A stretch of 64,000 nt of DNA from a virus. Its lineage: Duplodnaviria > Heunggongvirae > Uroviricota > Caudoviricetes. A model generated the notes under the pieces. The model was not told the DNA's origin. It did no database searches and worked only from the letters and a program-made list of their open reading frames with translations. Where the stretch lies: the IMG/VR virus record IMGVR_UViG_3300022822_000008. One strand, given 5' to 3'. Below, piece by piece: positions 579 through 35,471 of the stretch (within the stretch, counting starts at the first letter, position 1; every line of letters starts with the position of its first letter). The translations under genes were made by a program, and so were the position numbers.

Positions 579-610
579 AATAAATTCCTCAATTGAGTGT
601 CATGCAAAGT

Positions 611-688
611 TGGAAGGTGAAGCCAGATTCGAACTGGCGGTTGTAGAGATTTGCAATCCCCTGCGTTGGGCCACTCCGCCATTCACCT
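611..688 (-). tRNA. tRNA-Cys (anticodon GCA), CCA encoded
   Basis: Minus-strand cloverleaf folded by hand: acceptor AGGTGAA/TTCACCT, T-arm GCCAG-TTCGAAT-CTGGC, anticodon loop TTGCAAA. Confidence 0.65.
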
Positions 689-733
689 AATTAATTTATA
701 TTATAACACAACAGTAGTTTTGCTAACTTTTAT

Positions 734-1000
734 TTAAGCTGCGTAACTGCATGTCCATTTGTATGTACCACTGATGTGATACCAATCGCTGGGAATCTTA
801 TGATTAACTAAGAAAACAACATAGTTATTATCGTCTCTTAATCGACAGGCAATTGACATCCCTGAAGTATTGTGAAACCTTATAAAGGTCTTACCTTCAG
901 GATTTAAAGTTTGTTCGGTAGTTATAGCTACACCTCTTTCAGTTGCACCTATAACTGCAATCATCCCTATTAAACATAAAATTAATATTATTTTTTTCAT
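734..1000 (-). CDS. Small secreted protein (N-terminal signal peptide) within the tRNA cluster
   Basis: Hydrophobic N-terminus MKKIILILCLIGMIAVIGA. Confidence 0.4.
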   Translation of the reverse strand: MKKIILILCLIGMIAVIGATERGVAITTEQTLNPEGKTFIRFHNTSGMSIACRLRDDNNYVVFLVNHKIPSDWYHISGTYKWTCSYAA

Positions 1001-1043
1001 TTAATAAATCTCGTTTATAAGTTATTGAATGATTATTTAAATT

Positions 1044-1126
1044 TGGTGGGTATGATAGGAATCGAACCTATATTGCCTTGCGGATCAGATTTACAGTCTG
1101 AACACGATCCATACGTGTCTACACGC
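1044..1126 (-). tRNA. tRNA-Tyr-like (anticodon GTA, 13-nt variable arm); acceptor stem has 2 mismatches
   Basis: T-arm ATAGG-TTCGATT-CCTAT; perfect anticodon stem TCAGA/TCTGA with loop CTGTAAA; 3' CCA encoded; acceptor pairing is imperfect, so possibly a pseudogene. Confidence 0.45.
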
Positions 1127-1179
1127 CCAATTTAATACAACTATTATAACAAACTTGAAGTGAAATGTCAACCTTTATT

Positions 1180-1265
1180 TGGTACGAGTGGTGGGAGTCG
1201 AACCCACATGATTTTTCAATCAGAAGATTTTAAGTCTCCCGTGTATACCGTTCCACCACACTCGT
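1180..1265 (-). tRNA. tRNA-Leu (anticodon TAA), type II with 15-nt variable arm, CCA encoded
   Basis: Acceptor ACGAGTG/CACTCGT; T-arm GTGGG-TTCGACT-CCCAC; anticodon loop CTTAAAA; variable hairpin TGATT...AATCA. Confidence 0.75.
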
Positions 1266-1654
1266 AAATTCTGGACGACTCTAAACTCATGTTACGACTA
1301 GTATCGCATGAATCCGTTTTATACCTTTCTCACCGCGAACGCCCCAGCGGATACCTTTCGGTTAAGGATTTTTAAACTATTTCAATGATGAATTCTTCTA
1401 CTCTTCCCGAGTGTCGCCCGTAATTATTAATTACAGTTCTTGCCGTCAATATTCCTGTAGGTGCAAATGTAAAACCTATATAATAACCGTCTTTGTGTAA
1501 AACTAATCTTACAGGTCTGATTTCCAATTTTGTGGAAATGAGCAATGTCATAGTCTCTGAAAGTTTTTAGTTTTTTGAGAAATTTCATGATCAACCCTTA
1601 AATTCATTTCACGTTTCACGAGCAAGACTTAACCTCTTATCTCAATTAAAATTT

Positions 1655-1748
1655 CGGAGGGACAGAGATTCGAACTCTGACGCCACTTGCGCGGCTAACG
1701 GTTTTCAAGACCGCATCCGGTACCCAGAATCTTTCGGATTACCCCTCC
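1655..1748 (-). tRNA. tRNA-Ser (anticodon TGA), type II, no encoded CCA; oversized 24-nt D-region
   Basis: Acceptor GGAGGGG/TCCCTCC; T-arm CAGAG-TTCGAAT-CTCTG; anticodon stem GCGGT/ACCGT with loop CTTGAAA; 18-nt variable arm. Confidence 0.55.
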
Positions 1749-1899
1749 ATTAATAATGCTACAACCAGTTTAGGACTCGAACCATATCAACCGTCACTTT
1801 TCACCAATCACTACAAAGGTTATTACGATCTGGTATGCGCCAATACATCACATAGGTTGTATCATCTACTCGCGACAGTGAATCGCTTTCGATAATTCT

Positions 1900-2235
1900 T
1901 TACTTATACCATCTAACAAATAATTCTGATTTTTCTGTTTCTTTTATAACAGCGTCATCTGCAGTCATAACTACAATTCTTCTAAATGTATATGATACTT
2001 CTTTTGTTTCTTCTATCTTCTTTCTTTGCCGTTCAACATAAACTTGATACGTGCAACATTTTTTCATAGGTTCATAACCTTGCATCATTTCAACTGATTT
2101 AGTAAACTCAGCAAGAGACATTATATTTTCATCTCTTTCTTCAGGCGTAAGATGCGAAACGTAATACATAAAATATGGCATATTATATCCTATTGTTGAA
2201 TTAGGAGCCGGCTCCACGATAAAATGGAGTATCAC
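1900..2235 (-). CDS. Hypothetical protein
   Basis: 111-aa ORF between tRNA genes. Confidence 0.4.
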   Translation of the reverse strand: MILHFIVEPAPNSTIGYNMPYFMYYVSHLTPEERDENIMSLAEFTKSVEMMQGYEPMKKCCTYQVYVERQRKKIEETKEVSYTFRRIVVMTADDAVIKETEKSELFVRWYK

Positions 2236-2351
2236 CCGGTATTATTTGTTAAATTCTGTGGTTTCATGTTGGAGTCGTACCACACGTCATTATCAAGCCA
2301 TCATGAAACCACGACGGGACGTCTTTTCTTTCTGCAAAAAATAATTATAGG

Positions 2352-2423
2352 GGTGGCCTGCGATGATCGAAATCGCACCTTCAAGGTCACAACCTGGAGC
2401 TCTGCCACTTGAGCTAAGACCAC
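2352..2423 (-). tRNA. tRNA-His-like (anticodon GTG); anticodon stem has a C27-A43 mismatch; no CCA
   Basis: Perfect T-arm GCGAT-TTCGATC-ATCGC; D-arm GCTC-AAGTGGCA-GAGC; acceptor GTGGTCT/AGGCCAC; anticodon loop TTGTGAC. Confidence 0.5.
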
Positions 2424-2436
2424 ACCTATAATTACT

Positions 2437-2664
2437 TTAAATATGTTTATCTGAAAGCTTGCCAAATATATTCCATATAAGCCTATACAAATCTTCAGTT
2501 TGTTTTGGAGAAAAATTATGACCATGCATATCATGATACTCATTTGTTACTTCTTCTACAAACTTTTCTTGTTCTATTATTCTGTTATGTACATTAGTAG
2601 TAACATTATGATTCTTGAGTTTTTTGTATTCTTGGTATTCTTCTTCGTTTAATAAATATTGCAT
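2437..2664 (-). CDS. Hypothetical protein
   Basis: 75-aa ORF with a promoter-like -35/-10 upstream at 2696-2725. Confidence 0.4.
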   Translation of the reverse strand: MQYLLNEEEYQEYKKLKNHNVTTNVHNRIIEQEKFVEEVTNEYHDMHGHNFSPKQTEDLYRLIWNIFGKLSDKHI

Positions 2665-2695
2665 AATTTAATTCCTTTATCAATTCAATATAGCT

Positions 2696-2725
2696 ATTAT
2701 ATCAAACTTGGTACCAAATGTCAAT
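2696..2725 (-). promoter_or_regulatory. Sigma70-type early promoter (-35 ATTGAC, -10 TTGATATAAT)
   Basis: Minus-strand TTGATATAAT with 17-bp spacing to the -35 box. Confidence 0.5.
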
Positions 2726-2732
2726 AGTTATT

Positions 2733-2960
2733 TTATCTAAATTTTTGTTTATTACCAATTTTAGCTAAACCCCAAGCTAAAGATAAACAAACGATTACAA
2801 TTGCGATTGTAATCCAAAATGGAGAAAGTACCCACAACCAAGACCACGCAATAAACCCAGTCAGTTTCAATACAATGAAGACAATCGTCAATAGACCTAA
2901 GAAGCCAATACCACCATCGTTATTGTTGTTATTCACATTATTTCTGTTACTCATTTTCAT
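2733..2960 (-). CDS. Small membrane protein; paralog of 3572..3820
   Basis: Track ORF 2733..3080 trimmed to the internal start MKMSNRNN, preceded by GAGAGG, because the upstream part overlaps a tRNA; shares LTIVFIVLKL.G.I.WSW.WVLSP.W with 3572..3820. Confidence 0.5.
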   Translation of the reverse strand: MKMSNRNNVNNNNNDGGIGFLGLLTIVFIVLKLTGFIAWSWLWVLSPFWITIAIVIVCLSLAWGLAKIGNKQKFR

Positions 2961-2981
2961 TCCTCTCTCATTATTAAAAAT

Positions 2982-3056
2982 TGGCTGGGATATCAAGGTA
3001 CGATCCTGAAATGACGGATTTAAAGTCCGTAGTGTTGCCAATTGCACCATATCCCA
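2982..3056 (-). tRNA. tRNA-Gln paralog with anticodon TTA (reads UAA); candidate ochre suppressor; non-canonical T-loop ATCGTAC; CCA encoded
   Basis: Acceptor TGGGATA/TATCCCA is identical to the 5' acceptor of tRNA-Gln(TTG) at 3838..3912, and the discriminator G is shared; perfect anticodon stem ACGGA/TCCGT with loop CTTTAAA; D-stem 3 bp; T-stem TCAGG/CTTGA. Confidence 0.6.
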
Positions 3057-3069
3057 TTTATTAATAAGT

Positions 3070-3172
3070 GATGTTGCCATGGAATCGAACCACGAGGCTG
3101 CCGTCGCATTTAGCTCTTCCAGAACACGCAGGAATCGAACCTACTTGCCTATCCTTATACAACATCATAATT
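3070..3172 (-). other. Degenerate tRNA-like region: two T-arm/acceptor-like modules without a foldable D-arm and anticodon arm (tRNA remnants)
   Basis: Two motifs (CATGG-AATCGAA-CCACG at 3078-3094; GCAGG-AATCGAA-CCTAC at 3128-3144) each with an adjacent acceptor-like 7-mer; no 5-bp stem with 7-nt loop found between them. Confidence 0.3.
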
Positions 3173-3250
3173 TGGTGGGTAGTCACAGAATCGAACTGTG
3201 TTCTCAGGATCTTCAATCCCGCGCTGAATTACCAAACTAGCTCACTACCC
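3173..3250 (-). tRNA. tRNA-Phe (anticodon GAA), CCA encoded
   Basis: Acceptor GGGTAGT/ACTACCC perfect; T-arm CACAG-TTCGATT-CTGTG; anticodon loop TTGAAGA. Confidence 0.7.
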
Positions 3251-3260
3251 TTTATAACTT

Positions 3261-3336
3261 TGGTGGCCCACCCTGGGATCGAACCAGAAACCTTTCGATT
3301 ATGAGTCGAGTGCTCTACCAGTTGAGCTAACGGGCC
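3261..3336 (-). tRNA. tRNA-Met or Ile2 (anticodon CAT), CCA encoded
   Basis: Acceptor GGCCCGT/GTGGGCC; D-arm GCTC-AACTGGTA-GAGC; anticodon loop CTCATAA; the body is nearly identical to the tRNA at 7629..7704 but the acceptor stem differs. Confidence 0.75.
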
Positions 3337-3341
3337 GTATT

Positions 3342-3415
3342 TGGTACTAGGTGGAAGAATTGAACTTCCGTCTGACCATTATCAGTGGTCCGTTCTACCA
3401 TTGAACTAACCCAGT
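3342..3415 (-). tRNA. tRNA-Ile (anticodon GAT), CCA encoded
   Basis: Perfect T-stem GGAAG/CTTCC; perfect anticodon stem GACCA/TGGTC with loop CTGATAA; perfect D-stem GTTC/GAAC. Confidence 0.8.
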
Positions 3416-3435
3416 ATATTTAAAATAGTTAAAGG

Positions 3436-3508
3436 GGTGAACGACGGGGCTCGAACCCGCACAATCTCGAATCACAATCGAGGACATTACCAATTCTGCC
3501 ACGTCCAC
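3436..3508 (-). tRNA. tRNA-His (anticodon GTG), no CCA
   Basis: Perfect anticodon stem CTCGA/TCGAG with loop TTGTGAT; T-arm GCGGG-TTCGAGC-CCCGT; acceptor GTGGACG/CGTTCAC. Confidence 0.7.
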
Positions 3509-3571
3509 GCCTTTAACTACTTTTCAATTATATAACCATCCTTGGTCATGTTTTTAGTACATAGTATCAAA

Positions 3572-3820
3572 CTATGATTGTTTTGTTAACTTATATTTAA
3601 TTTTTTTGAAGCCTTCGATACCAAGTATCGCCACGAAAAAGATTAAATAACCAATAGCTCCGCAAGAAATGACAACAGTGATAGGTAACCATAAAGGCGA
3701 AAGTACCCACCACCAAGACCACGTAATTGTACCGACCAACTTTAAAACAATAAAGACAATAGTCAATACTCCCATTGTACCTATACCATCTGAACTTACT
3801 TCTTTTTTCCTTGAACTCAT
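3572..3820 (-). CDS. Small membrane protein; paralog of 2733..2960
   Basis: RBS GAGGAAG upstream of the ATG; two transmembrane segments; conserved motif shared with the paralog. Confidence 0.5.
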   Translation of the reverse strand: MSSRKKEVSSDGIGTMGVLTIVFIVLKLVGTITWSWWWVLSPLWLPITVVISCGAIGYLIFFVAILGIEGFKKIKYKLTKQS

Positions 3821-3837
3821 TTTACTTCCTCATCATA

Positions 3838-3912
3838 TTAATAATCTTGGCAGGGACAGAAGGATTCGAACCTTCGATACCGGATTCAAAGTCCAGCGCC
3901 TTAACCGCTTGG
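3838..3912 (-). tRNA. tRNA-Gln (anticodon TTG), CCA encoded
   Basis: Acceptor TGGGATA/TGTCCCT; perfect T-arm GAAGG-TTCGAAT-CCTTC; anticodon loop CTTTGAA. Confidence 0.75.
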
Positions 3913-3930
3913 CCATATCCCAATTGTAAT

Positions 3931-4005
3931 TTTATTAATTTGGTGCAAGGTGATGATAACGATCCATCCTCTAGGGATTTTCAATACCTTACTAATACAT
4001 CTCAG
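3931..4005 (-). tRNA. tRNA-Phe-like (anticodon GAA), second copy with non-canonical T-loop ATCGTTA; CCA encoded
   Basis: Acceptor GCAAGTT/ACCTTGC (6 of 7 pairs); D-stem ACTG/TAGT; anticodon stem AGGTA/TCCCT (4 of 5) with loop TTGAAAA. Confidence 0.5.
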
Positions 4006-4022
4006 TTAAACTTGCAAATATT

Positions 4023-4099
4023 TGGTATCAAGAACTGGAATCGAACCAGTATCAATTATTCGTATCTCTCGAAATGCTCTACCATTGAGCTATCCTGAT
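4023..4099 (-). tRNA. tRNA of undetermined specificity (anticodon loop AGAGATA lacks U33); CCA encoded
   Basis: Perfect T-arm ACTGG-TTCGATT-CCAGT; D-arm GCTC-AATGGTA-GAGC; acceptor ATCAGGA/TCTTGAT; the anticodon arm is non-canonical. Confidence 0.5.
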
Positions 4100-4216
4100 G
4101 TTTGAGATCGTACACGGCTCTCGACCGCAGACTAGATGAACTATTGAAGTGCATGAATCAACAAAGACGTCTCTATGTTGCTTTCTCAACTCAATCTAGT
4201 TATACGAAATAAGGTT

Positions 4217-4266
4217 ATCACAACTTGACATTTCCGCTCTAATTGCTTGATGTGAGAGGTTGTGAT
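4217..4266. other. Long imperfect hairpin (ATCACAAC...GTTGTGAT) immediately 3' of tRNA-Asp; possible processing site or small stable RNA
   Basis: 8-bp terminal inverted repeat with a partly self-complementary interior. Confidence 0.25.
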
Positions 4267-4271
4267 ATATT

Positions 4272-4347
4272 TGGCGGTGTGTGCGGGATTTGAACCCGCG
4301 ACCTCTTGCGTGACAGGCAAGCATTCTTACCCCTGAACTAACACCCC
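4272..4347 (-). tRNA. tRNA-Asp (anticodon GTC), CCA encoded
   Basis: Perfect T-arm GCGGG-TTCAAAT-CCCGC; perfect anticodon stem CTTGC/GCAAG with loop CTGTCAC. Confidence 0.8.
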
Positions 4348-4354
4348 AAAAATT

Positions 4355-4573
4355 TTAACTACACTTAATTCTGTTACCTATATAATCTCTAAAGATTTTA
4401 GGTTTTGTTTTTTGATCTGATTCAATATGAACCACATAAAAATGTTTTACATTATCAATACAAACGTATTTTACATTATGCGTTGGGTTTAGAATTGCAT
4501 ATATGCAAAGACATATAACCGTAATAACAGCTCCAATAATTCGTTTATATTTCATATTGTTTTCTTTTTTCAA
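4355..4573 (-). CDS. Small membrane or secreted protein
   Basis: 72 aa with a hydrophobic segment; promoter-like element at 4575-4604. Confidence 0.4.
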   Translation of the reverse strand: MKKENNMKYKRIIGAVITVICLCIYAILNPTHNVKYVCIDNVKHFYVVHIESDQKTKPKIFRDYIGNRIKCS

Positions 4574-4574
4574 T

Positions 4575-4604
4575 TCAGTGTGTACATTGTATCAAATATC
4601 TTGC
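4575..4604 (-). promoter_or_regulatory. Sigma70-type promoter (-35 GTTGAC, -10 TTGATACAAT)
   Basis: Consensus boxes upstream of ORF 4355..4573. Confidence 0.45.
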
Positions 4605-4627
4605 CAATGTCAACAACTAATATAATT

Positions 4628-4695
4628 TGGTGCGTCACAAGGGAGTCGAACCCTCAATGATTGGGTTTAGAATCCTACATTAACCATTATGACGC
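4628..4695 (-). other. Truncated tRNA-like element: acceptor plus T-arm and CCA, no anticodon arm
   Basis: T-arm GAGGG-TTCGACT-CCCTT and acceptor GCGTCAT/GTGACGC pair well, but only ~40 nt remain and no 5-bp stem with 7-nt loop exists; the 5' part overlaps the 3' end of ORF 4680..4949. Confidence 0.3.
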
Positions 4696-4949
4696 AATGT
4701 AACTCCAATACTTAAAACCCATCTGGAGCCTTTTTCAATCTTTTTAACTTTGTGGAAGTTAGCATCTGCTCTAAATAGACAGAATCGCCACCAACGAAAT
4801 ACAACGTTGCTACAAACAAATTCACCACCCTTATCAGCTTTTTTCAATGTAATATTAAACCGATAATGACGACCATATTTACCAGGATCTTTATGTTTTG
4901 GTATAAAGGAGCCTGTTTTATAATGGAATATATAAATGTCTGTCTTCAA
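4680..4949 (-). CDS. Hypothetical protein
   Basis: 89-aa ORF. Confidence 0.4.
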   Translation of the reverse strand: MKTDIYIFHYKTGSFIPKHKDPGKYGRHYRFNITLKKADKGGEFVCSNVVFRWWRFCLFRADANFHKVKKIEKGSRWVLSIGVTLRHNG

Positions 4950-5494
4950 ACGTTTGCTATAGAATAAAGTAAATATTCGATACCCCGAATTAAATTTATC
5001 ATTACCCCAACGGAATAATCTTAAACTTGGCGTTTGCGTTTTCTTCTACATTTTAGCACCTTCTTGTTTATCGAAAAATTCATCAAAACTGCAATGACCC
5101 ACATGAGCAGCAATTTTGTTTAGTTCTACTATCATGATATCTAAATAAGACATCACTTTGTTAAAATCTTCATTACTCATTTTACATTTCCTTATTAATA
5201 TCAATCAAAGAGCGAGTAGCAAGTGAAGCAATAAACAGTATTCGCTTGCCCCGAAGGATACAATACGAACAAAACAAATCACAAAAAACAAATCACACTT
5301 GTCGTTACATTAGTTCAGTTAGCAATGGACAAGTCTTAAGACACCCAATATAGACTGTAGCAGTAACAAATTGACCGTAAAGGTCTCCATTAATGTTCTG
5401 AAATTAATCAGAGGTACTTGTTCTCTTTTCTCTTGATTGATAGTCATCTGTATAGGTCCCCCTAGGGTAGACTGTTTCCGATGACGCGAACTCT

Positions 5495-6067
5495 TTAAAT
5501 TAGATTTGATTTTGAAAGTGATGCCTCTACACTAGGTGAAAGATCAATTTCTGTTTTTATATTCAACTCTAACAATTTATCTTTTAAATTTTGTCTAGTT
5601 CTTTTGTACGTAGCAATCTCTTTTTCCGCGTTACTTAAATACGACTTACTAAGTACTGAAGTTGAAAAATTGCTCGACATTCTATCGTAAGATGAACTGG
5701 ATTCATTGCTTTTAATTTTCCAAATTTTACCTGCGATCAATTCAGCACTCATTTGCTCACCAGCCGTAATTGCATCTTTGGCGTCTTTCAAATGCGCTTC
5801 AATTAAAGCGATTTCGGTAAGCAAGTCACTGACGCCTGCTTTATGATTACTCCTTGATACATCTTTGCGTATTCTGTACAAAATATTAGTCAGATCAGAT
5901 TTTAAAACTTCTGCATCTTTGAAATTACTTCTTGCTGTGTCAATTTGCACATTGGCATCTTCATGCTCATTCAATCGAACTACTGCAAGAGAAGAAAGAT
6001 TAATGTTTTTAATTACACTTTGTATTTCTTGTTGTAAGGCATTTGCCTTTCTTAAACTAATTTTCAT
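5495..6067 (-). CDS. Hypothetical coiled-coil protein
   Basis: 190-aa ORF in the tRNA region. Confidence 0.5.
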   Translation of the reverse strand: MKISLRKANALQQEIQSVIKNINLSSLAVVRLNEHEDANVQIDTARSNFKDAEVLKSDLTNILYRIRKDVSRSNHKAGVSDLLTEIALIEAHLKDAKDAITAGEQMSAELIAGKIWKIKSNESSSSYDRMSSNFSTSVLSKSYLSNAEKEIATYKRTRQNLKDKLLELNIKTEIDLSPSVEASLSKSNLI

Positions 6068-6092
6068 TTTACATCCTCATTATAAATTATAT

Positions 6093-6170
6093 TGGTGTTC
6101 ACGGTTGGAGTCGAACCAACGACCTCAGGATTAGAAATCCCGTGTTCTTTCCAGCTGAACTACGCGAACG
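6093..6170 (-). tRNA. tRNA-Arg (anticodon TCT), CCA encoded
   Basis: Perfect T-arm GTTGG-TTCGACT-CCAAC; anticodon loop TTTCTAA; perfect D-stem GTTC/GAAC. Confidence 0.7.
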
Positions 6171-6178
6171 TTATTAGG

Positions 6179-6254
6179 CATCCCCACGTGGATTTGAACC
6201 ACGGTTTCTGCTCCGAACAGAGCATTGTCCTAGGCCTGACTAGACGATAGGGAT
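6179..6254 (-). tRNA. tRNA of uncertain specificity (possibly Asn GTT); anticodon loop is 6 or 8 nt, not 7
   Basis: Perfect T-arm CGTGG-TTCAAAT-CCACG; acceptor ATCCCTA/TGGGGAT; D-stem GTCT/GGAC; anticodon region TGCTC-TGTTCG-GAGCA does not give a 7-nt loop. Confidence 0.5.
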
Positions 6255-6263
6255 ATTAAAATG

Positions 6264-6333
6264 AGCAGGTAAAGGGAATCGAACCCTTTCTACACAGCTT
6301 GGAAGGCTGGCGGATAACCTTTATCTTACCTGC
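6264..6333 (-). tRNA. tRNA-Gly (anticodon TCC), no CCA
   Basis: Perfect acceptor GCAGGTA/TACCTGC; perfect T-arm AAGGG-TTCGATT-CCCTT; anticodon loop CTTCCAA. Confidence 0.65.
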
Positions 6334-6523
6334 ATTAAACTACTTAAAACGCTGGTTCATCCTTCTTGCGAAGATGTTGAACTATATTGGTATTACACTT
6401 AATTATATTATCTGCATTCGCGCCTATGTGTGCAGTACGTAATGATTCACATAGATTCTCTAATTCAACTAAAAACTCATAATGATCTTCTTTGTAATCA
6501 AACATAATAATTCCCAAATAATT

Positions 6524-6598
6524 TGGTACACCTAGAGAGAATCGAACTCTCATTGTCAGGTTGAAAACCTGGTGTCCTGACCGTTAGACGATAGGTGT
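6524..6598 (-). tRNA. tRNA-Glu (anticodon TTC), CCA encoded
   Basis: Perfect acceptor ACACCTA/TAGGTGT; perfect T-arm GAGAG-TTCGATT-CTCTC; anticodon loop TTTTCAA. Confidence 0.8.
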
Positions 6599-6604
6599 AA
6601 AAAT

Positions 6605-6682
6605 TGGTAGCGAGTAATGGAATCGAACCATTCTCTGTTCGGCTTATGAGACCGATGAGTTCTACCAGAACTCTAACTCGCG
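6605..6682 (-). tRNA. tRNA-Met/Ile2 (anticodon CAT), CCA encoded; body differs from the other CAT tRNAs
   Basis: T-arm AATGG-TTCGATT-CCATT; anticodon stem TCGGT/GCCGA with loop CTCATAA; D-stem GAGT/ACTC; C1-U72 mismatch. Confidence 0.7.
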
Positions 6683-6807
6683 TTTGTCATTTATTGGAAC
6701 GGTTATCACTGAACGATCCGCAATCAGTAGCTTTATCCGTTATAGTATTTTTCAACTAAACATATAAGGCAGGTATTTATTTCTTCGTGTTTCGATTCAA
6801 TATAAAC

Positions 6808-6837
6808 ATTATATCAAAAAACTAAAGCAAAGTCAAC
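6808..6837 (-). promoter_or_regulatory. Early promoter cassette with conserved leader, positioned to drive the tRNA sub-cluster 6682..6093
   Basis: GTTGAC-17-TTGATATAAT followed by TGTTTATATTGAATCGAAACACGAAGAA; no ORF follows, only tRNA genes. Confidence 0.6.
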
Positions 6838-7187
6838 CTTTATTTTCAATTATTCTGATATTATTCTTAATATTTTCCGGCAAATTTAAATGTGCAATTT
6901 TTTTGATAAAGTTATTTCGTGCATTTTCTTCATTCTTCGCCTTTAAAGTCAACCTTACAAATTCACCTTCTTGTATCCCATATTCACCAGTTACAATAAA
7001 AGTTTTCATTCAACCTCTTTAGGAAATAATGCCGCGACTGCAGTGAAAAGGTTAAGTTCTCTCAATGACAGTTTTGTAATTTCATCAACTGCCGCATCAG
7101 GATCTTCTTTAAACATTTCTCGCATTTCCCTAACATATTGCGCGCTTATTTCCGGGTGTAACATATCGTACTCCATAATAAAAAAAT

Positions 7188-7260
7188 TGGCACCAGAGTT
7201 AGGAATTGAACCCAACAGACGAGGGGTTGGAATCCTGTCGATACCCTGTATCTCTCTGGC
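7188..7260 (-). tRNA. Compact tRNA, anticodon ambiguous (CCA/Trp or TCC/Gly)
   Basis: Acceptor GCCAGAG/CTCTGGT; T-arm TTGGG-TTCAATT-CCTAA; the anticodon region GGTTGGAAT gives two alternative weak stems. Confidence 0.45.
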
Positions 7261-7270
7261 ATTGTAAATG

Positions 7271-7336
7271 TATTCACTCTAGGGATCGAACCTCGGCGTT
7301 CGTAGCACCGCGCTCTTCCATCTGAGCTAAGCAAAT
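7271..7336 (-). pseudogene. tRNA-Arg(ACG)-like remnant: D-arm, anticodon arm and T-loop present; variable loop and T-stem collapsed; acceptor does not pair
   Basis: D-arm GCTC-AGATGGAA-GAGC; anticodon stem CGGTG/CGCCG with loop CTACGAA; GGTTCGATCC T-loop lies directly against the anticodon stem (~6 nt missing). Confidence 0.35.
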
Positions 7337-7341
7337 ATCAG

Positions 7342-7433
7342 TGGCGGATAGACTAGGATTCGAACCTAGGGATCCCTGTAACAGGACCGACGAGTTAGCA
7401 ACCCGTTGCCTTAAGCCACTCAGCCATCTATCC
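7342..7433 (-). tRNA. tRNA-Ser (anticodon GCT), type II, CCA encoded
   Basis: Perfect acceptor GGATAGA/TCTATCC; perfect T-arm CTAGG-TTCGAAT-CCTAG; anticodon stem ACGGG/CTCGT with loop TTGCTAA; 20-nt variable arm. Confidence 0.75.
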
Positions 7434-7440
7434 AAATAAA

Positions 7441-7518
7441 TGGTGTGAACGGTGGGAGTCGAACCCACAAGCATCTGTTTCTAAAACAGATAGGTAAACC
7501 AATTCCCGTCACATTCAC
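7441..7518 (-). tRNA. tRNA with anticodon TAG (Leu-type anticodon) but a short type I variable loop
   Basis: Perfect T-arm GTGGG-TTCGACT-CCCAC; perfect anticodon stem TCTGT/ACAGA with loop TTTAGAA; acceptor GTGAATG/CGTTCAC. Confidence 0.55.
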
Positions 7519-7533
7519 AATAAAAGCATAATG

Positions 7534-7608
7534 TCAGAAAGGAAAGATTCGAACTTTCGACCCCACGGATCCAAACCGTGTACTCTGACCAGACTGAGCT
7601 ACTCTCTG
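7534..7608 (-). tRNA. tRNA-Pro (anticodon TGG), no CCA
   Basis: Perfect T-arm GAAAG-TTCGAAT-CTTTC; perfect anticodon stem CACGG/CCGTG with loop TTTGGAT. Confidence 0.8.
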
Positions 7609-7628
7609 ACATTATGCTCTTTAAATTT

Positions 7629-7704
7629 TGGTGCACCGCCCTGGATTCGAACCAGAAACCTTTCGATTATGAGTCGAGTGCTCTACCAGTTGAGCTAGCA
7701 GTGC
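7629..7704 (-). tRNA. tRNA-Met/Ile2 (anticodon CAT), CCA encoded; near-duplicate body of 3261..3336
   Basis: The internal ~60 nt are identical to the tRNA at 3261..3336 apart from a T-loop base; acceptor GCACTGC/GCGGTGC. Confidence 0.75.
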
Positions 7705-7727
7705 GTAATTTTAACTTTAAACAAATT

Positions 7728-7798
7728 TGGTGGAGAACCAGAGAATCGAACTCTGTTCTAGTCGGTGCAAGCGACCATCTGCATCCATGACGTTCCCC
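7728..7798 (-). tRNA. tRNA-Ala (anticodon TGC) with the G3:U70 identity pair, CCA encoded
   Basis: Acceptor GGGGAAC/GTTCTCC gives G3-U70; perfect T-arm CAGAG-TTCGATT-CTCTG; anticodon loop CTTGCAC. Confidence 0.8.
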
Positions 7799-7804
7799 AA
7801 TTTT

Positions 7805-8197
7805 TTACACCTTTAACTTATCATCTCTAGTAAGGTAGTTTTTCTTTCGCATAGTTGTTTTTGCTATAACATCTAATTCATCATTTCGTTTATCGTACTT
7901 AACCATAAAAGGTATGTTGATGTTTGAGTTAATGTCGAATAAAACTGCTTCGACACCTGGATTCATACCTCCGATTTTAGGTCCATGTTTTGCAAATACC
8001 TTCTTGAACATACTCATTAGCTCAACTATTGTAATTGCATTACCGTTTCTAGCATCGTTGACTCTTTCTCTAAAATGAGTACCAGATAAATCTATATCTA
8101 CACCAACAGCAGCGAATAACTTATCAGCAAATTTCTCTACTATACCAATATCTGTTCTTGAAAGTTCTTCTGAGAACATTTCTTTAAATCTTTTCAT
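7805..8197 (-). CDS. Hypothetical protein
   Basis: 130-aa ORF. Confidence 0.5.
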   Translation of the reverse strand: MKRFKEMFSEELSRTDIGIVEKFADKLFAAVGVDIDLSGTHFRERVNDARNGNAITIVELMSMFKKVFAKHGPKIGGMNPGVEAVLFDINSNINIPFMVKYDKRNDELDVIAKTTMRKKNYLTRDDKLKV

Positions 8198-8385
8198 TGT
8201 GACTACCTTATTATTTTTATCTATTTATCTATTTATGTACAAGGTTATCAACTAAATAATTATATGTCCAGTATCCTCACCTAAAAGAGGAATGCATCGG
8301 CCGTTTGCATCGCTAATCTTGACCCTATGCGTCCGAGGATTGGCATTTAGGAACGATCAATTTTGCATACTGGCATATAATTATT

Positions 8386-8461
8386 TGGTAGTGTGAAATG
8401 GATTTGAACCATTATCTAATCCCTTATGAGGAGATTTCTTTACCAATTAAGATACCACACT
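8386..8461 (-). tRNA. tRNA with anticodon CAT (fourth CAT tRNA), CCA encoded
   Basis: Perfect T-arm AATGG-TTCAAAT-CCATT; anticodon stem ATCTC/GGGAT with loop CTCATAA; acceptor AGTGTGG/TCACACT. Confidence 0.7.
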
Positions 8462-8472
8462 ATTAAAAAATT

Positions 8473-8548
8473 TGGTACTCGATGATGGGATCGAACCATC
8501 AACATCTGCCATGTAAAGGCAGTGCTCTGCCTATTGAGCTAATCGAGT
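8473..8548 (-). tRNA. tRNA-Val (anticodon TAC), CCA encoded
   Basis: Perfect acceptor ACTCGAT/ATCGAGT; perfect T-arm GATGG-TTCGATC-CCATC; perfect anticodon stem with loop TTTACAT. Confidence 0.8.
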
Positions 8549-8610
8549 TTTGGTGCCGAAACCCGGAACTGACCCGAGAACTAATGGTTACAAATCACTT
8601 GTTTTTCCAG

Positions 8611-9252
8611 TTAAACTATTTCGGCTATTTCGTTAATTGATTGCCAACTAAGTTGGCTCTTATTTAAAATTATTATTCTAACGCCATTCTGTTCTTCTAC
8701 TAGTTTTATCTTTTCACAATCTTTGAACCCAAGGCTTGGGTTGATGTTGTTAATTAGAAAGTCGTTTTTAGGGTCTAAATATAAATCATAGTCTATTAAA
8801 TATATGTCTGGTGTATAGGTTCTTGCTTTGCCTTTTGGGTCAATATAATTGAACCTCGAGCAAGTATCCCATTTAATGTCATTTTCATCTAAGCTCTTTG
8901 CAACTTCTAATTCGTAACTACTACCTAAAGTTTTACCTTTATATTTTATCCATCTAGACTGAGTTACGCCACCAAGGCCACGTTTTTTCGCGGCTATTGA
9001 TAATTTATTCCTAGCTTCTTGAGACCAATTACGATTTCTATTACGTTCGCTAATCTTATTTCTCGCGTCATCACTTAAAATATAAGGTATACCAGTTTCC
9101 GAAGATTTGATCCATTGATTGCTATTCTTCCTCTTATCATAATCAATTTTAGGGTCTGCAATTCTATCTGGATTTTCTGCGCATCTTGGTTGATGTGCGC
9201 TCAATACCCTTTTCTTTTCTATTTCTTTGTTACAATATTTGCAATTAAACAT
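8611..9252 (-). CDS. Putative free-standing homing endonuclease (N-terminal CxxC zinc finger, NUMOD3-like repeats, C-terminal nuclease-like domain)
   Basis: CKYCNKEI...HQPRC; repeated KIS/KLS.RNRNRNWSQEARNKLS motifs; located directly beside the tRNA cluster. Confidence 0.45.
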   Translation of the reverse strand: MFNCKYCNKEIEKKRVLSAHQPRCAENPDRIADPKIDYDKRKNSNQWIKSSETGIPYILSDDARNKISERNRNRNWSQEARNKLSIAAKKRGLGGVTQSRWIKYKGKTLGSSYELEVAKSLDENDIKWDTCSRFNYIDPKGKARTYTPDIYLIDYDLYLDPKNDFLINNINPSLGFKDCEKIKLVEEQNGVRIIILNKSQLSWQSINEIAEIV

Positions 9253-9424: not shown

Positions 9425-9454
9425 ATTATATCAAACTAATTTCTATTTGTCAAC
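9425..9454 (-). promoter_or_regulatory. Sigma70-type early promoter
   Basis: GTTGAC-17-TTGATATAAT upstream of the homing-endonuclease-like ORF. Confidence 0.55.
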
Positions 9455-9910
9455 CATTATTTTTGTTTTTATTTCATTTAATTTCGCAGTTAATCGTAAA
9501 AATGCTTTATGATATTTTTTCATCCGTTCGAAATCTTTATCTGTAATTCCTTTAAGTCGAGTTATATCACTGTTGTCTTTCAAATCAGCAAGTTTAACTC
9601 TTATTGAGTCAACATTCGTTTCTACACGACATAGATAATCTTCGTACGGTTCGCCTTTAATCTTTGTCATACATATAATACCTGAAATGACCCGTTCGGT
9701 GAATCCTTCTTGTCGTAAATAATTCAGCGTTATTTCTGGGCAATCTTCAACTGTATCATGAAGAACTGCAATTTGTTGTGTTTCATATCCATCAACAGAT
9801 TTCATTACTCTTAATGGATGTAGAATATATGGATGTCCACCTTTATCAACTTGATCTACGTGAGCTCTTGCAGCTATCATAATTGCTTTGCTTAACATAT
9901 CAATTTCCAT
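9443..9910 (-). CDS. HD-domain (p)ppGpp hydrolase (small alarmone hydrolase, SpoT/Mesh1-like)
   Basis: AARAHVDQ..GGHPYILHPLRV..AVLHDTVED motifs in a 155-aa single-domain protein. Confidence 0.7.
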   Translation of the reverse strand: MEIDMLSKAIMIAARAHVDQVDKGGHPYILHPLRVMKSVDGYETQQIAVLHDTVEDCPEITLNYLRQEGFTERVISGIICMTKIKGEPYEDYLCRVETNVDSIRVKLADLKDNSDITRLKGITDKDFERMKKYHKAFLRLTAKLNEIKTKIMVDK

Positions 9911-13237: not shown

Positions 13238-13268
13238 GTTTCTCTTTGTTGTTTCGATTCAATACAAA

Positions 13269-16545: not shown

Positions 16546-17451
16546 TCAACCATTATATTCTTCCATGATGATATCTTTTATTTTGCTCATATCGTTATAT
16601 TCTGGCAAATCACTCGCCTCAAGTTTTTCCGTAACACTATCATACATATCAGTGATTATAGAAACAGCATCTTCTTGAGGTACTTGACCTAATTTGATTT
16701 TCATAATTTCGTCAGCACGAACCAAAGGAAATACTAAATCTCTTGTGTCGATTATTTCCTCAAGTTGGATAATAGCCCTGACTGCATGACTCAATGCCTT
16801 CCAATCGCCACCTGAATGTGAACTTACTACAGTTCGGTCACCGTAACGACTTATTTTTTGCTCCAAACAAGTTTTAAGATGCTCCATACGACAGGTAATT
16901 TGATTGCGGCTGCCACAAATATCAATGTTAGCAATAATATTATCTTTATGTGGAGTGAACGTAATATATTTAAAATCAGATCTCATTATTTGTTCAGGTA
17001 TCGTGGTTTCAGCAACTCTAACACTATCGTGATAAACATGCAACCAATTATTTAGTTCCTGCATTTCCTGATAACGTCTAACTTTATGGCCATATTTCGT
17101 AGACATCGTTTTTATATAACCAAGAATTCCTCTCATATTTTTACAATAAATGCCAGATCTATTTTTCTGAATTTCATCCCAAGCAGGCGTCGAGTTTAGT
17201 GTAAATTCCTTCGGTGTGTGTATCATATCAACAGAAACAGTATCACCCTTGTCTAGCATGCTGAAATATTTTCCAATTGCATACAGCGAAGTGTCAATAT
17301 CATCAGTTTGTTTTTCTATGACAGGTTGAAAATTTCCAAATACAACATCTTCTAAAGTAGGAACAAAAAGGCCTTTGTAATCTGTATCGCTCTGTGGCCT
17401 AGATAATCCATACAGATGCGAACCAAATACTCCATTAAATAAAATTTTCAT
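16546..17451 (-). CDS. Pol-beta-superfamily nucleotidyltransferase (GS..DxD motif)
   Basis: GVFGSHLYGLSRPQSDTDYKG plus a downstream acidic residue in VSVDMIH. Confidence 0.6.
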   Translation of the reverse strand: MKILFNGVFGSHLYGLSRPQSDTDYKGLFVPTLEDVVFGNFQPVIEKQTDDIDTSLYAIGKYFSMLDKGDTVSVDMIHTPKEFTLNSTPAWDEIQKNRSGIYCKNMRGILGYIKTMSTKYGHKVRRYQEMQELNNWLHVYHDSVRVAETTIPEQIMRSDFKYITFTPHKDNIIANIDICGSRNQITCRMEHLKTCLEQKISRYGDRTVVSSHSGGDWKALSHAVRAIIQLEEIIDTRDLVFPLVRADEIMKIKLGQVPQEDAVSIITDMYDSVTEKLEASDLPEYNDMSKIKDIIMEEYNG

Positions 17452-34263: not shown

Positions 34264-34593
34264 TTATTTTCCTTCTTCATTTTGAATTAATTCAAAATAC
34301 ACCACGGCGCGGCATATTGCTTTTTCGTGCGTTTCATCTTCATTTTCAAATGCGAGAAACCTTTCAAGTTCTTGATTTTCGTGGCACCAGTAATTAGGAC
34401 CAAGACAATCGTAATCTTCATAGCTTTTATTTACGTTGAATTCTTGTGCTATGTAAGCACCACCCGACAATGAAAAGGGATCCAATGGAGCAATCATCCA
34501 TTCATATGAGTTACATATTGCGATTATTGCTTCACTCAACTCGTCATCGGTCATATCGAATACTTTATAATATAATGGTAATTCTTCTCTCAT
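34264..34593 (-). CDS. Hypothetical protein
   Basis: 109 aa between nadV and the prs-like gene. Confidence 0.4.
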   Translation of the reverse strand: MREELPLYYKVFDMTDDELSEAIIAICNSYEWMIAPLDPFSLSGGAYIAQEFNVNKSYEDYDCLGPNYWCHENQELERFLAFENEDETHEKAICRAVVYFELIQNEEGK

Positions 34594-35471
34594 TGTATTT
34601 TACTCATTTTGTTTTTTATTCGTTGATCATCATTATAGGTATTTAGTGATTTTTCAGTTACATAGTCAGCAATGATATTATGAGTATAAATTGCGTCAAT
34701 ATGATCTTTGAATATCTCTAGACCTTTTGCAGCGATTAAGTGAGTGACGTAGAGATCTACTTCATATCCCATTTCTTTCAATTTTACGGCGAGTGGAATA
34801 AAAGTACCTCCACCGTCTAAGATATCATCCACAATTAATACTCTTCGCTTGGATTTAACTAAATCTGCATGTGATTTGCAATTCAATTCCACACTTTCAA
34901 TTCTGCCAGTTTCAAGATTACGTTTCTTTAATGCATACAAAACAGGAACTCCAGACATTTCAGATATCTTTTGTATTTTGGTAACAGCGCCAGCGTCAGG
35001 AGAAACTATATAATCGTAATCTGCCATTTGGATATGAGATTTTTTCAAAGTTTCCCGTAGGCAAGTCGCCTGTGTATTAATAACGTAGTTAAGATAATGA
35101 TGATCTAAGGCCTGTTCATTATGCGGGTCGTTGATGTGGATTTCGTCAAAGTTAAATCTTGACAACCAATCTTGAAATACTCTCAGAGGCTCAGTATTTC
35201 CAGTTTGAAAGATTCTATCCGCACGAGCGTAAGGTAAATATCCCAATACTAGAATTTCTTGAATATTATCCATATCGAAAGTATCATAAATTGCATAGTA
35301 AAGCATTTCCATTTTTTCTTTCATTAGAGGAATGTTGTTAGTTTCATCTGTCACATCGATTGAGATGTATTTTTCAATTACTGCATCTGGGTCAACACGA
35401 CAGGTAATAGCAGAATCAGAGAAGGTTAACCATTGTACGTCGATCACTTCGTTGTTAGATATTAGTTGCAT
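34590..35471 (-). CDS. prs: Ribose-phosphate pyrophosphokinase-like protein (PRPP synthetase family)
   Basis: VSPDAGAV..KI flexible-loop motif and PRPP-binding loop RRVLIVDDILDGGGT. Confidence 0.65.
   Translation of the reverse strand: MQLISNNEVIDVQWLTFSDSAITCRVDPDAVIEKYISIDVTDETNNIPLMKEKMEMLYYAIYDTFDMDNIQEILVLGYLPYARADRIFQTGNTEPLRVFQDWLSRFNFDEIHINDPHNEQALDHHYLNYVINTQATCLRETLKKSHIQMADYDYIVSPDAGAVTKIQKISEMSGVPVLYALKKRNLETGRIESVELNCKSHADLVKSKRRVLIVDDILDGGGTFIPLAVKLKEMGYEVDLYVTHLIAAKGLEIFKDHIDAIYTHNIIADYVTEKSLNTYNDDQRIKNKMSKIQ

Follow-up and report, generated by a model that had tools for sequence, protein, structure and literature searches.

The 64,000-nucleotide (nt) stretch of phage DNA considered here (Caudoviricetes; IMG/VR record IMGVR_UViG_3300022822_000008; hereafter the window) contains a dense array of tRNA genes, within which a tRNA with a CUA anticodon and no D stem abuts a predicted 2-oxoglutarate (2OG)- and Fe(II)-dependent oxygenase gene whose second codon is an in-frame TAG. 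The simplest reading of this arrangement, which we regard as probable, is that of an amber-gated gene accompanied by its own suppressor tRNA. With comparable confidence, held jointly for the array, the turnover within it and the amber module, the region can be viewed as the tRNA-gene array of a large AT-rich phage of virulent type, transcribed from several consensus host-type promoters. A more far-reaching proposition, for which we consider the odds about even, is that the D-stem-less tRNA(CUA) and the amber-gated oxygenase might constitute a self-contained, horizontally mobile translational switch, lodged in tRNA arrays of phages that otherwise use the standard code, with the enzyme possibly acting on the translation apparatus or on tRNA; the pair would then be a natural case of single-gene suppressor-dependent expression and a plausible stepping stone to full recoding.

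The oxygenase gene opens with ATG TAG AAG AAA downstream of a GAAGGTG ribosome-binding site, and no alternative start is available before codon 35. Its homologs are 111-125 amino acids (aa) long, and their alignment extends through the residues that follow the TAG. An in-frame TAG is found at codon 2-8 in 17 lineages drawn from IMG/VR and cultured phages; the closest homologs (L181/L182 and L186), which come from independent metagenomes, likewise begin ATG TAG, and among the IMG/VR and metagenome members that are at least 48% identical, the TAG lies at codon 2-8 in all except one lineage (L183-185; see below). A small number of cultured phages (FLC9, Vp_R1/SJSY21) whose homologs are similarly close show plain starts, as do the more distant homologs. 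In most of the TAG-bearing lineages, the stretch from the TAG to the conserved core is devoid of start codons. Comparison of the codons after the TAG yielded synonymous to nonsynonymous ratios of 5:0 (L188 versus L191) and 9:1 (L192 versus L196), and this almost exclusively synonymous change indicates that these codons are translated in that frame. The base immediately following the TAG is an A in 16 of the 17 lineages; as established in E. coli genetics, an A in this position favors suppression.

A CUA tRNA adjoins the gene in 16 of the 17 TAG lineages. It lies upstream of the ATG in nine of them, at distances from 19 nt to 1.9 kb (~20 nt in most), overlaps the 3' end of the gene in six, and is situated 56 nt downstream in one. 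In the window, the 5' end of the tRNA falls 13 nt upstream of the oxygenase stop codon (overlap 4680-4695), with a like overlap in L186, L187 and L204. Two cultured phages carry the module, namely Vibrio phage nt-1 and Xanthomonas phage XaC1. In GenBank, the gene of nt-1 is present as a truncated 77-aa ORF (open reading frame) and that of XaC1 starts from an internal Met, with neither tRNA being annotated, and the paper describing XaC1 mentions neither a suppressor nor a stop codon. Literature searches of incomplete coverage yielded no description of a TAG/tRNA(CUA) module.

The tRNA itself had been taken, in an earlier sequence-only reading of the window, for a remnant devoid of an anticodon arm. 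The fold says otherwise: the anticodon arm is present, and it is the D stem that is missing. The element combines the acceptor stem GCGUCAU/GUGACGC, A73 and CCA with an 11-nt D region without a helix, an anticodon loop UUCUAAA below an A31.C39 apposition, and a normal T arm. Several sequence features of an amber suppressor are found, i.e., CUA at positions 34-36, a 7-nt loop with U33, a 7-bp acceptor stem, a T arm and the 3' CCA. The loop has the form YUCUAAA in 13 of 14 family members, and the linked RNA displays CUA at 34-36 of a 7-nt loop with U33 in all cases. In a register-true alignment of 12 members, from which the window sequence was excluded, pairing reaches 97.6% in the acceptor stem and 100% in the T stem; double-sided changes occur at each of the 7 acceptor pairs and at 14 of the 17 pairs overall. 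None of 500 shuffles reached the observed covariation score, and shifted-register controls paired at 26-42%. A covariance model built from these 12 non-window sequences (R1) recovered the window element with 54 bits (E 4e-12) and the copies of XaC1 and nt-1 with 55.4 and 51.5 bits, respectively, while the best ordinary tRNA scored 33.5 bits in the window and 43 bits in ~1.8 Mb of related loci; beside the homologs with plain starts, R1 returned no match. Default tRNA finders miss most copies of this tRNA. In E. coli, amber suppressors can be shifted between LysRS and GlnRS by way of the 31-39 pair (PMC1483225), and by analogy the mismatch at this position may provide a lead as to the amino acid inserted.

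Regarding the encoded protein, the Pfam model 2OG-FeII_Oxy_3 scores 26.1 bits, just below its 27-bit cut-off, and phrog_13746 is matched with an E-value of 1.6e-30. Four residues, H53, D55, H100 and R110, are invariant in the family alignment (A1). The AlphaFold2 model (predicted local distance difference test score 92.5) presents an all-β cupin or double-stranded β-helix (DSBH) of minimal fold with an HxD...H triad, and matches generic members of this fold (AspH, P4H, 6n1f) with template modeling scores of 0.55-0.62; a PDB sequence search with the oxygenase profile returned nothing significant. By virtue of the DSBH fold, the HxD...H iron triad and the 2OG-binding arginine, the product is predicted to be of the 2OG-Fe(II)-oxygenase type. 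Homologs of the gene adjoin genes for Thg1, aminoacyl-tRNA synthetase-like, QueC-like and RNase T proteins; there is a hint, and only a hint, that the substrate of the enzyme is related to tRNA or translation.

Under the amber-gate reading, the D-stem-less tRNA(CUA) would decode the TAG at codon 2 and the oxygenase would be translated only then, such that only cells that express, process and charge the phage tRNA would yield the enzyme. With the stop at the very N-terminus, failed attempts would cost only a peptide of 1-7 residues. The charging of the tRNA, actual suppression at the TAG and a purpose for the gate are what we infer here. Several observations weigh against this reading. First, the lineage L183-185 (~73% identity) carries a TAA at codon 3 together with an ATG of its own, and L200 has the TAG with no CUA tRNA within 3 kb. 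Second, the 5' end of the tRNA lies inside the gene in the window, and processing by RNase P would remove the stop codon and destroy that copy of the mRNA. Third, TAG terminates 15-17 other ORFs of the window, including that of the DNA ligase, and backup stops after the TAG-ended ORFs show no excess (p = 0.32); hence, any suppression would have to be weak or tolerated. Further, a canonical D arm and a full anticodon stem are absent from the tRNA family: the D region spans 10-15 nt without a conserved helix, and no more than 2-3 Watson-Crick pairs form in the anticodon stem, where A.C or C.A recurs at 31-39 (unpaired in 10 of the 12 sequences, as is 27-43 in nine of the 12). Finally, the lineages are interrelated, and their counts therefore do not represent independent events.

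Among the alternatives, the one that survives best invokes an arms race with host anticodon nucleases, in which some of the tRNAs would act as nuclease-resistant replacements or decoys, the host tRNA-Lys would be repaired instead of replaced, and the odd anticodon loops and the lack of Lys and Asn tRNAs would be part of the same picture; we hold this to be possible, though short of an even chance. The missing Lys and Asn tRNAs would fit a published idea in which host anticodon nucleases shape the tRNA sets of phages (PMC10264068), as well as the RNA repair gene set of the window, and an arms race of this kind has published precedent (PMC10264068, PMC11464382, PMC11555353). ARAGORN detects neither a Lys nor an Asn tRNA in the array or in the whole window, as had been noted previously for Lys, although AAA is the commonest codon (988/15213). 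The second Glu-type tRNA (6177-6254) has the anticodon loop of 8 nt, CUGUUCGG, or of 6 nt if one more pair forms, that the sequence-only reading had described; the strain variants L091/L092 have a tRNA that matches it except for a normal Glu loop of 7 nt, UUUUCAG, and of the 13 differences over 1.1 kb, three fall in this loop and none elsewhere in that tRNA. The tRNA at 4023-4099, rightly recognized as devoid of U33, retains its body in the orthologs of L087 and L089, with compensatory changes in the acceptor and T stems, and varies in its loop over the three lineages (AGAGAUA, AGAGAAA, AUAAAUA), the divergence of L087 and L089 being such that the flanking 190-aa protein is only 50% identical. 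Additionally, genes for Rnl1-like and Rnl2-like proteins, a P-loop kinase, a metallophosphoesterase, an HD protein and RlaP are present in the window. However, the loop differences come from comparisons among the phages, and single-nucleotide differences cluster elsewhere too (e.g., four within 11 nt at 6013-6023), so that one event could account for the cluster in the loop. That Lys and Asn tRNAs are lacking holds for the 64-kb window, beyond which more tRNA genes may lie. Moreover, this explanation is complementary to the amber gate and does not account for the linkage between the TAG and the tRNA(CUA).

Genome-wide recoding of TAG, of a kind resembling genetic code 15 and concerning the late genes, would make the CUA tRNA a general suppressor and the oxygenase one of many genes dependent on it; we consider this unlikely. 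Phages with rare TAG stops and suppressor tRNAs, such as crAss-like, Lak and other gut phages, do recode (bioRxiv 10.1101/2021.08.26.457843), and they share with the present phage low GC, rare TAG stops, a phage tRNA that reads a stop and in-frame-stop genes that await the phage machinery (as predicted here). TAG is indeed the rarest stop in the window (15/137 ORFs), which covers the early region of the phage only, and some database proteins of the family carry a Q at the TAG position, a sign that TAG=Gln had been the code selected by the gene caller on these contigs. Nevertheless, the standard code covers 86% of the window with ORFs, and the oxygenase gene is the only one in the 64 kb that needs TAG read-through. 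In the neighborhoods of 16 family loci, genes are split by TAG in nine cases, TGA in 14 and TAA in 11, with no excess of TAG. Vibrio phage nt-1, a T4 relative, has 405 annotated features in the standard code, and in the window TAG ends real genes such as the DNA ligase. In contrast to the recoding phages, the module involves one gene family with a single TAG in the first 8 codons, as far as the sampled regions show, along with a D-stem-less tRNA that is physically coupled to the gene; elsewhere in the region TAG serves as a stop.

It is quite improbable, in our estimate, that the whole is an ordinary codon-usage array with neutral debris, in which the CUA element and the oxygenase TAG are decaying pseudogenes. 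This is certainly how some of its members appear: the Arg(ACG) gene, the two-T-arm element and the stubs are plainly broken, the Glu copy with the 8-nt loop is a derived allele and, next to Glu 6524-6598, redundant, and beyond this strain the UUA tRNA is without an ortholog. Decay, however, is hard to square with a TAG kept at codons 2-8 across 17 diverged lineages, with almost only synonymous change after it, or with the strong covariation of the CUA tRNA and its match to an independent model; the Ser(TGA), type-I Leu and U33-less tRNAs are also conserved with compensatory changes.

Least probable of all is the view of ATG-TAG (or ATG-N1-6-TAG) as a minimal start-stop upstream ORF tuning translation of the downstream gene, with the tRNA-like element as a processing or stability signal or a decoy: the stop does always fall within 8 codons of a start with a ribosome-binding site, the tRNA does have a poor anticodon stem and no D stem, and its overlap with the gene end in some lineages would couple processing to translation, but most lineages offer no start between the TAG and the conserved core, protein-level constraint nevertheless acts on the codons right after the TAG, no stop other than TAG occurs (apart from the lone TAA with its own ATG), the linked RNA always presents CUA at 34-36 of a 7-nt loop with U33, and the A after the TAG in 16/17 lineages is the context known from E. 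coli genetics to favor suppression.

The tRNA arrays of phages tend to be seen as aids to codon usage, with any odd members dismissed as pseudogenes. If the amber-gate reading is true, one such "remnant" is a conserved, odd-shaped suppressor tRNA tied to a gene that is seemingly untranslatable without it. Suppressor-dependent expression would then exist in standard-code phages as a compact module, which bears on the origin of stop-codon recoding; default tRNA finders and gene callers would systematically miss or truncate both partners; and the tRNA would be a naturally evolved minimal amber-suppressor scaffold. The presence of the module in two cultured systems, nt-1 (V. natriegens) and XaC1, makes the question directly testable.

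The classical suppressors include supB of E. coli and psu of T4 (tRNA-Gln, UUG to UUA) and Su7 (tRNA-Trp, CCA to CUA). The tRNA at 2982-3056 is comparable to the former in being of the Gln lineage, with UUA for UUG and the Gln acceptor features kept, and the CUA tRNA to the latter in that its anticodon arm resembles that of the Trp(CCA) tRNA of the window. Unlike these laboratory mutants, the versions described here are natural alleles fixed in wild phage populations. In its shortened form, with an acceptor/T minihelix and a 7-nt anticodon loop, the CUA tRNA also recalls the mitochondrial tRNAs lacking a D arm and further non-canonical cloverleaves (e.g., PMC5389517), from which it differs in its bacteriophage setting, the conserved A.C/C.A at 31-39, the CUA anticodon and the tie to one protein gene.

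The UUA-anticodon tRNA (2982-3056) had been overlooked in the original inventory of anticodons, which was to that extent incomplete. Its closest relatives are the Gln(TTG) tRNAs of related phages, and it displays a Gln-type acceptor and body (U1:A72, G2:C71, G3:C70, G73 and G10). It is accordingly predicted to be Gln-derived, having a supB-like body and anticodon. No ortholog was found outside the same strain, and no gene in the window requires TAA read-through. Recoding of TAA was considered and rejected, TAA being the main stop (80/137 ORFs) in addition to this lack of a gene needing its read-through. The UUA and UUG Gln-type tRNAs are each followed by a small membrane-protein gene, and these two genes are paralogous (68% DNA identity), which points to duplication of a tRNA-plus-ORF cassette. 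A T loop starting AUCGU (A54...U58) in place of UUCGA occurs at 2982-3056 and 3935-4022 of the window as well as in L188 (~2887-2955) and L191 (~1911-1979); this swap could preserve the 54-58 reverse-Hoogsteen pair.

Other members of the array that look aberrant are likewise found in related phages. The Ser(TGA) tRNA was correctly noted to have an oversized D region, which comes to 25 nt between position 9 and the anticodon stem; ARAGORN sets its acceptor in the wrong register, and within Rfam the gene is missed by RF00005, the top match being tRNA-Sec (36 bits at 1656-1748). Its ortholog in the relative L087 has the same D region, with compensatory changes at 1-72 and in the variable arm, which argues for a functional variant as opposed to decay. 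The type I tRNA with the Leu anticodon TAG (7441-7518), whose unusual type had also been recognized, has homologs of 77-78 nt in many related phages, reading TAA, TAG or CAA. Being conserved across diverged phages with compensatory changes, the Ser(TGA), U33-less, type-I Leu and CUA tRNAs are, by this comparative criterion, predicted not to be decayed genes. The earlier portrayal of the array in terms of redundancy, oddities and decayed copies hence fails for these four, and stands for the Arg(ACG), two-T-arm, Phe-like and His-like elements. Automated searches returned no canonical structures for the elements that had been called aberrant, and so do not undermine that part of the reading.

Four tRNAs with CAT anticodons are present, as previously reported, and the proposal that they comprise initiator, elongator and Ile2 types fits their sequences. 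Those at 3261-3336 and 7629-7704 indeed share one body, being identical over positions 8-58, and differ in their acceptor stems and in two T-loop bases. The identity rules for tRNA-Ile2 and initiator tRNAs are established from work on E. coli, in which CAU together with C4:G69 and C5:G68 are the TilS determinants. Both pairs occur in the acceptor GGCCCGU/GUGGGCC of 3261-3336, and by these sequence criteria this tRNA is of the tRNA-Ile2 type and a predicted lysidine substrate. The tRNA at 6605-6682 has the initiator features C1xU72 and A11:U24, but two G:C pairs and U31.G39 instead of three G:C pairs at 29-31:39-41. Both His tRNAs (2350-2423 and 3434-3508) have C73, but a U or C at position -1 instead of the encoded G-1 that is usual in bacteria. 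A Thg1-like guanylyltransferase is encoded adjoining the amber module in the related lineage L186 (3537-4223); there is none among the window ORFs scanned.

The same phage is present in several metagenome assemblies at 97-100% identity, and these strain variants served for the comparisons of turnover. In L083, a 767-nt insert (L083 7650-8416, at window ~7651-7671) interrupts the tRNA-Met 7629-7704, with both flanks 100% identical to the window. The insert encodes a 215-aa endonuclease (phrog_15137, E 2e-33, PD-(D/E)XK-type) and its own Ile2-like CAT tRNA, and leaves orphan 5' and 3' tRNA fragments; an ORF present or absent at a precise site in near-identical genomes is the hallmark of a freestanding homing endonuclease cassette. 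Further, L086 is without the segment 4620-5060, i.e., the oxygenase gene and the CUA tRNA, and L091 has a canonical Gly gene in place of ORF 6344-6553 and the different Gly gene of the window. The array would on this account be a hotspot of recombination and homing-endonuclease activity, where cassettes of tRNAs and small ORFs are gained, lost and swapped. Freestanding homing endonucleases are known to act in the tRNA region of T4 (SegB). As in that case, the presence or absence of an endonuclease ORF within the tRNA region goes with replacement of flanking tRNA sequence; in contrast to SegB, the predicted enzyme belongs to the PD-(D/E)XK/endonuclease I-like family phrog_15137, and the cassette brings a substitute CAT tRNA.

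Cassette and homing-endonuclease turnover, visible between the strain variants, accounts for truncated tRNA debris, and these variants offer a concrete picture of endonuclease cassettes generating it. The elements that look like debris are the Arg(ACG) gene, the two-T-arm element, the Phe-like stub and the His-like stub. The Arg(ACG)-like gene is truncated as had been proposed, the deletion being of 7 nt (first put at ~6 nt) relative to intact Arg(ACG) genes. The element at 3068-3172 does contain two T-arm modules, each GGTTCGATTCC, inside one acceptor-like stem, and has no homolog outside the same strain. The D arm of the Phe-like stub (3935-4022) resembles those of the Phe tRNAs of related phages. 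The folding energies of the remnants are no better than those of shuffled sequences.

As to the array as a whole, ARAGORN predicted 23 tRNA genes, every one on the minus strand between 611 and 8625, and Rfam RF00005 likewise placed 23 above its gathering score. The union of the two comprises 25 genes with a canonical cloverleaf, in the sense of one above a curated threshold (RF00005 or ARAGORN default); Tyr 1044-1128 and Gly 6263-6334 were contributed by Rfam only, and Ser(TGA) and the element 6177-6254 by ARAGORN only. Three non-canonical tRNAs are plausible in addition from relaxed thresholds and hand folds, namely the CUA tRNA, an element resembling tRNA-Ala(TGC) (7728-7798) and a probable tRNA-Trp(CCA) (7188-7260), and ~5 remnants are present. 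This bears out the earlier description of a dense cluster of ~30 genes, and every isotype it listed is there; a Thr tRNA, which it had not recognized, lies at 8551-8625, just beyond the interval it covered. The Ala-like, Trp-like and CUA tRNAs fall below the default thresholds of RF00005 and ARAGORN, as do the Phe-like stub, the truncated Arg(ACG) gene and the element with two T arms. The array would supply an almost complete minimal decoding set, with U34 tRNAs for the four-codon boxes and G34/U34 for the split boxes; missing from it are an intact Arg(ACG), Lys and Asn. Codon usage is AT-rich, ATA (381 occurrences) and AGA being plentiful. Six near-perfect sigma-70 promoters with an extended -10 element, matching the consensus at 12/12 or 11/12 positions, lie in the array or just upstream. 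The features are collected in Table 1.

Table 1. Features of the tRNA array and associated genes in the window
Feature	Coordinates	Strand	Basis or remark
tRNA-Cys(GCA)	611..688	-	ARAGORN; Rfam 52 bits
tRNA-Tyr(GTA), type II, one acceptor-stem C.A mismatch	1044..1128	-	Rfam 36.8 bits; ARAGORN relaxed threshold
tRNA-Leu(TAA), type II	1180..1265	-	ARAGORN, Rfam
tRNA-Ser(TGA), enlarged D arm (5-bp stem, 15-nt loop), acceptor GGAGGGG/UCCCUCC, G73, CCA not encoded	1655..1748	-	
His-like stub, GUGGUUU/AAACCAC stem extended to 11 bp around T-loop-like sequence	2245..2320	-	Not significant versus shuffles
tRNA-His(GTG) copy 1, position -1 = U, not G	2350..2423	-	ARAGORN, Rfam
Small membrane-protein genes, paralogous	2733-2956 and 3572-3820		After UUA and UUG Gln-type tRNAs
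UUA-anticodon tRNA (candidate ochre-type suppressor), tRNA-Gln lineage, T loop AUCGUAC (A54/U58)	2982..3056	-	ARAGORN 'Stop(tta)'; Rfam 47.5 bits
Two-T-arm remnant inside one acceptor-like stem GAUGUUG/CAACAUC	3068..3172	-	
tRNA-Phe(GAA)	3173..3250	-	ARAGORN, Rfam
tRNA(CAT), Ile2-like acceptor GGCCCGU, C4:G69 and C5:G68	3261..3336	-	ARAGORN, Rfam
tRNA-Ile(GAT)	3342..3415	-	ARAGORN, Rfam
tRNA-His(GTG) copy 2	3434..3508	-	ARAGORN, Rfam
tRNA-Gln(TTG)	3848..3922	-	ARAGORN, Rfam
Degenerate Phe(GAA)-like element, T loop AUCGUUA	3935..4022	-	Hand fold and nearest-neighbor comparison; missed by ARAGORN and Rfam
tRNA-like gene after tRNA-Asp, non-decoding loop AGAGAUA (no U33)	4023..4099	-	ARAGORN, Rfam
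tRNA-Asp(GTC)	4272..4347	-	ARAGORN, Rfam
Non-canonical tRNA(CUA), 68 nt	4628..4695	-	Model R1, family covariation
2OG-Fe(II)-oxygenase-like gene	4680..5051	-	ATG 5051-5049, in-frame TAG 5048-5046, stop TAA 4682-4680
190-aa ORF found in phage tRNA arrays	5495..6067	-	
tRNA-Arg(TCT)	6093..6169	-	ARAGORN, Rfam
Second Glu-type tRNA, 8-nt anticodon loop CUGUUCGG	6177..6254	-	ARAGORN
tRNA-Gly(TCC), weak D arm; cassette with ORF 6344-6553	6263..6334	-	Rfam 39.2 bits
tRNA-Glu(TTC)	6524..6598	-	ARAGORN, Rfam
Initiator-like tRNA(CAT), C1xU72 mismatch, A11:U24	6605..6682	-	ARAGORN, Rfam; nearest relatives are CGCGGG-type initiators
Sigma-70 near-consensus promoter, extended -10	6808..6836	-	Similar ones at 9425-9453, 4586-4613, 2696-2724, 1143-1171
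Probable tRNA-Trp(CCA), G73, short D arm, anticodon-stem C.C and A.C mismatches	7188..7260	-	ARAGORN relaxed only; not Rfam
Arg(ACG)-like pseudogene, 7-nt deletion in variable loop and T stem	7271..7336	-	Alignment to intact Arg(ACG) genes
tRNA-Ser(GCT)	7342..7433	-	ARAGORN, Rfam
tRNA-Leu(TAG), type I (no long variable arm), 78 nt, Leu-type D arm, A73	7441..7518	-	ARAGORN, Rfam
tRNA-Pro(TGG)	7533..7608	-	ARAGORN, Rfam
tRNA(CAT), Met-like, body identical to 3261-3336	7629..7704	-	ARAGORN, Rfam
tRNA-Ala(TGC)-like, G3:U70, reduced D arm	7728..7798	-	Hand fold; Rfam match only tmRNA tRNA-like domain, 26 bits
Fourth tRNA(CAT), acceptor AGUGUGG	8386..8461	-	ARAGORN, Rfam
tRNA-Val(TAC)	8473..8548	-	ARAGORN, Rfam
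tRNA-Thr(TGT), T loop GUCAGUU	8551..8625	-	ARAGORN; Rfam 50 bits
Endonuclease-like ORF (phrog_15137), overlaps 5' end of tRNA-Thr	8611..9252	-	Paralog of ORF inserted in strain L083
RNA repair gene set	39361-40536, 40933-41475, 46186-47205, 50267-50812, 9443-9910, 16546-17451		

The window is AT-rich (~35% GC), has almost every gene on the minus strand and, outside the array, encodes typical early functions of large phages, including DNA ligase, NAMPT and phosphoribosyl pyrophosphate synthetase. The array is in many respects comparable to those of large virulent phages (T4, T5, KVP40/nt-1 and jumbo phages), which also comprise dozens of tRNA genes among small ORFs in an early region, with strong host-type promoters, some non-canonical and pseudo-tRNAs, and RNA ligase/kinase repair genes nearby. 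It differs from them in its near-complete set without Lys and Asn, its two suppressor-type anticodons and the lack of a close DNA relative: searches of 50,697 phage records by megablast and blastn produced no matches beyond tRNA size. The nearest cultured phage, Paraglaciecola Antarctic GD virus 1, is without a comparable array, and the contigs of P0004 and P0005 have none. IMG/VR scans for exact patterns (the shared Met/Ile2 body, two patterns of the U33-less tRNA and the UUA anticodon arm) produced nothing useful. The 190-aa ORF is embedded in the tRNA arrays of many phages, 163 related loci having 2167 tRNAs around it; a metagenome scan with this protein retrieved mostly distant freshwater phages (≤38% identity). 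In one distant relative (L180, 374-763), a 129-aa ArfB-like protein with an RF-1 domain is encoded directly upstream of the homolog of the 190-aa ORF.

A long-range stem of 12 bp closes a 143-nt non-coding spacer (8236-8378) located between the tRNA(CAT) 8386-8461 and ORF 7805-8197; the spacer does not surpass shuffles in folding energy (z = -0.98) and has no Rfam match. A repeat of ~30-80 nt with a consensus promoter and leader, found at ~6788-6836, recurs near 13250, 18526, 22734, 24705, 25883, 31464, 36158, 44127 and 45056, and these copies probably represent a family of early promoters. A complete RNA heal-and-seal set includes an Rnl1-like ligase next to a P-loop (AAA_33) kinase, along with an Rnl2-like ligase, a metallophosphoesterase, an HD phosphohydrolase and an RlaP nucleotidyltransferase, and suggests tRNA repair as in T4. 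Finally, NAD salvage genes for NAMPT and a ribose-phosphate pyrophosphokinase are located at 32513-34261 and 34590-35471, as is likewise seen in KVP40-like and other large phages.

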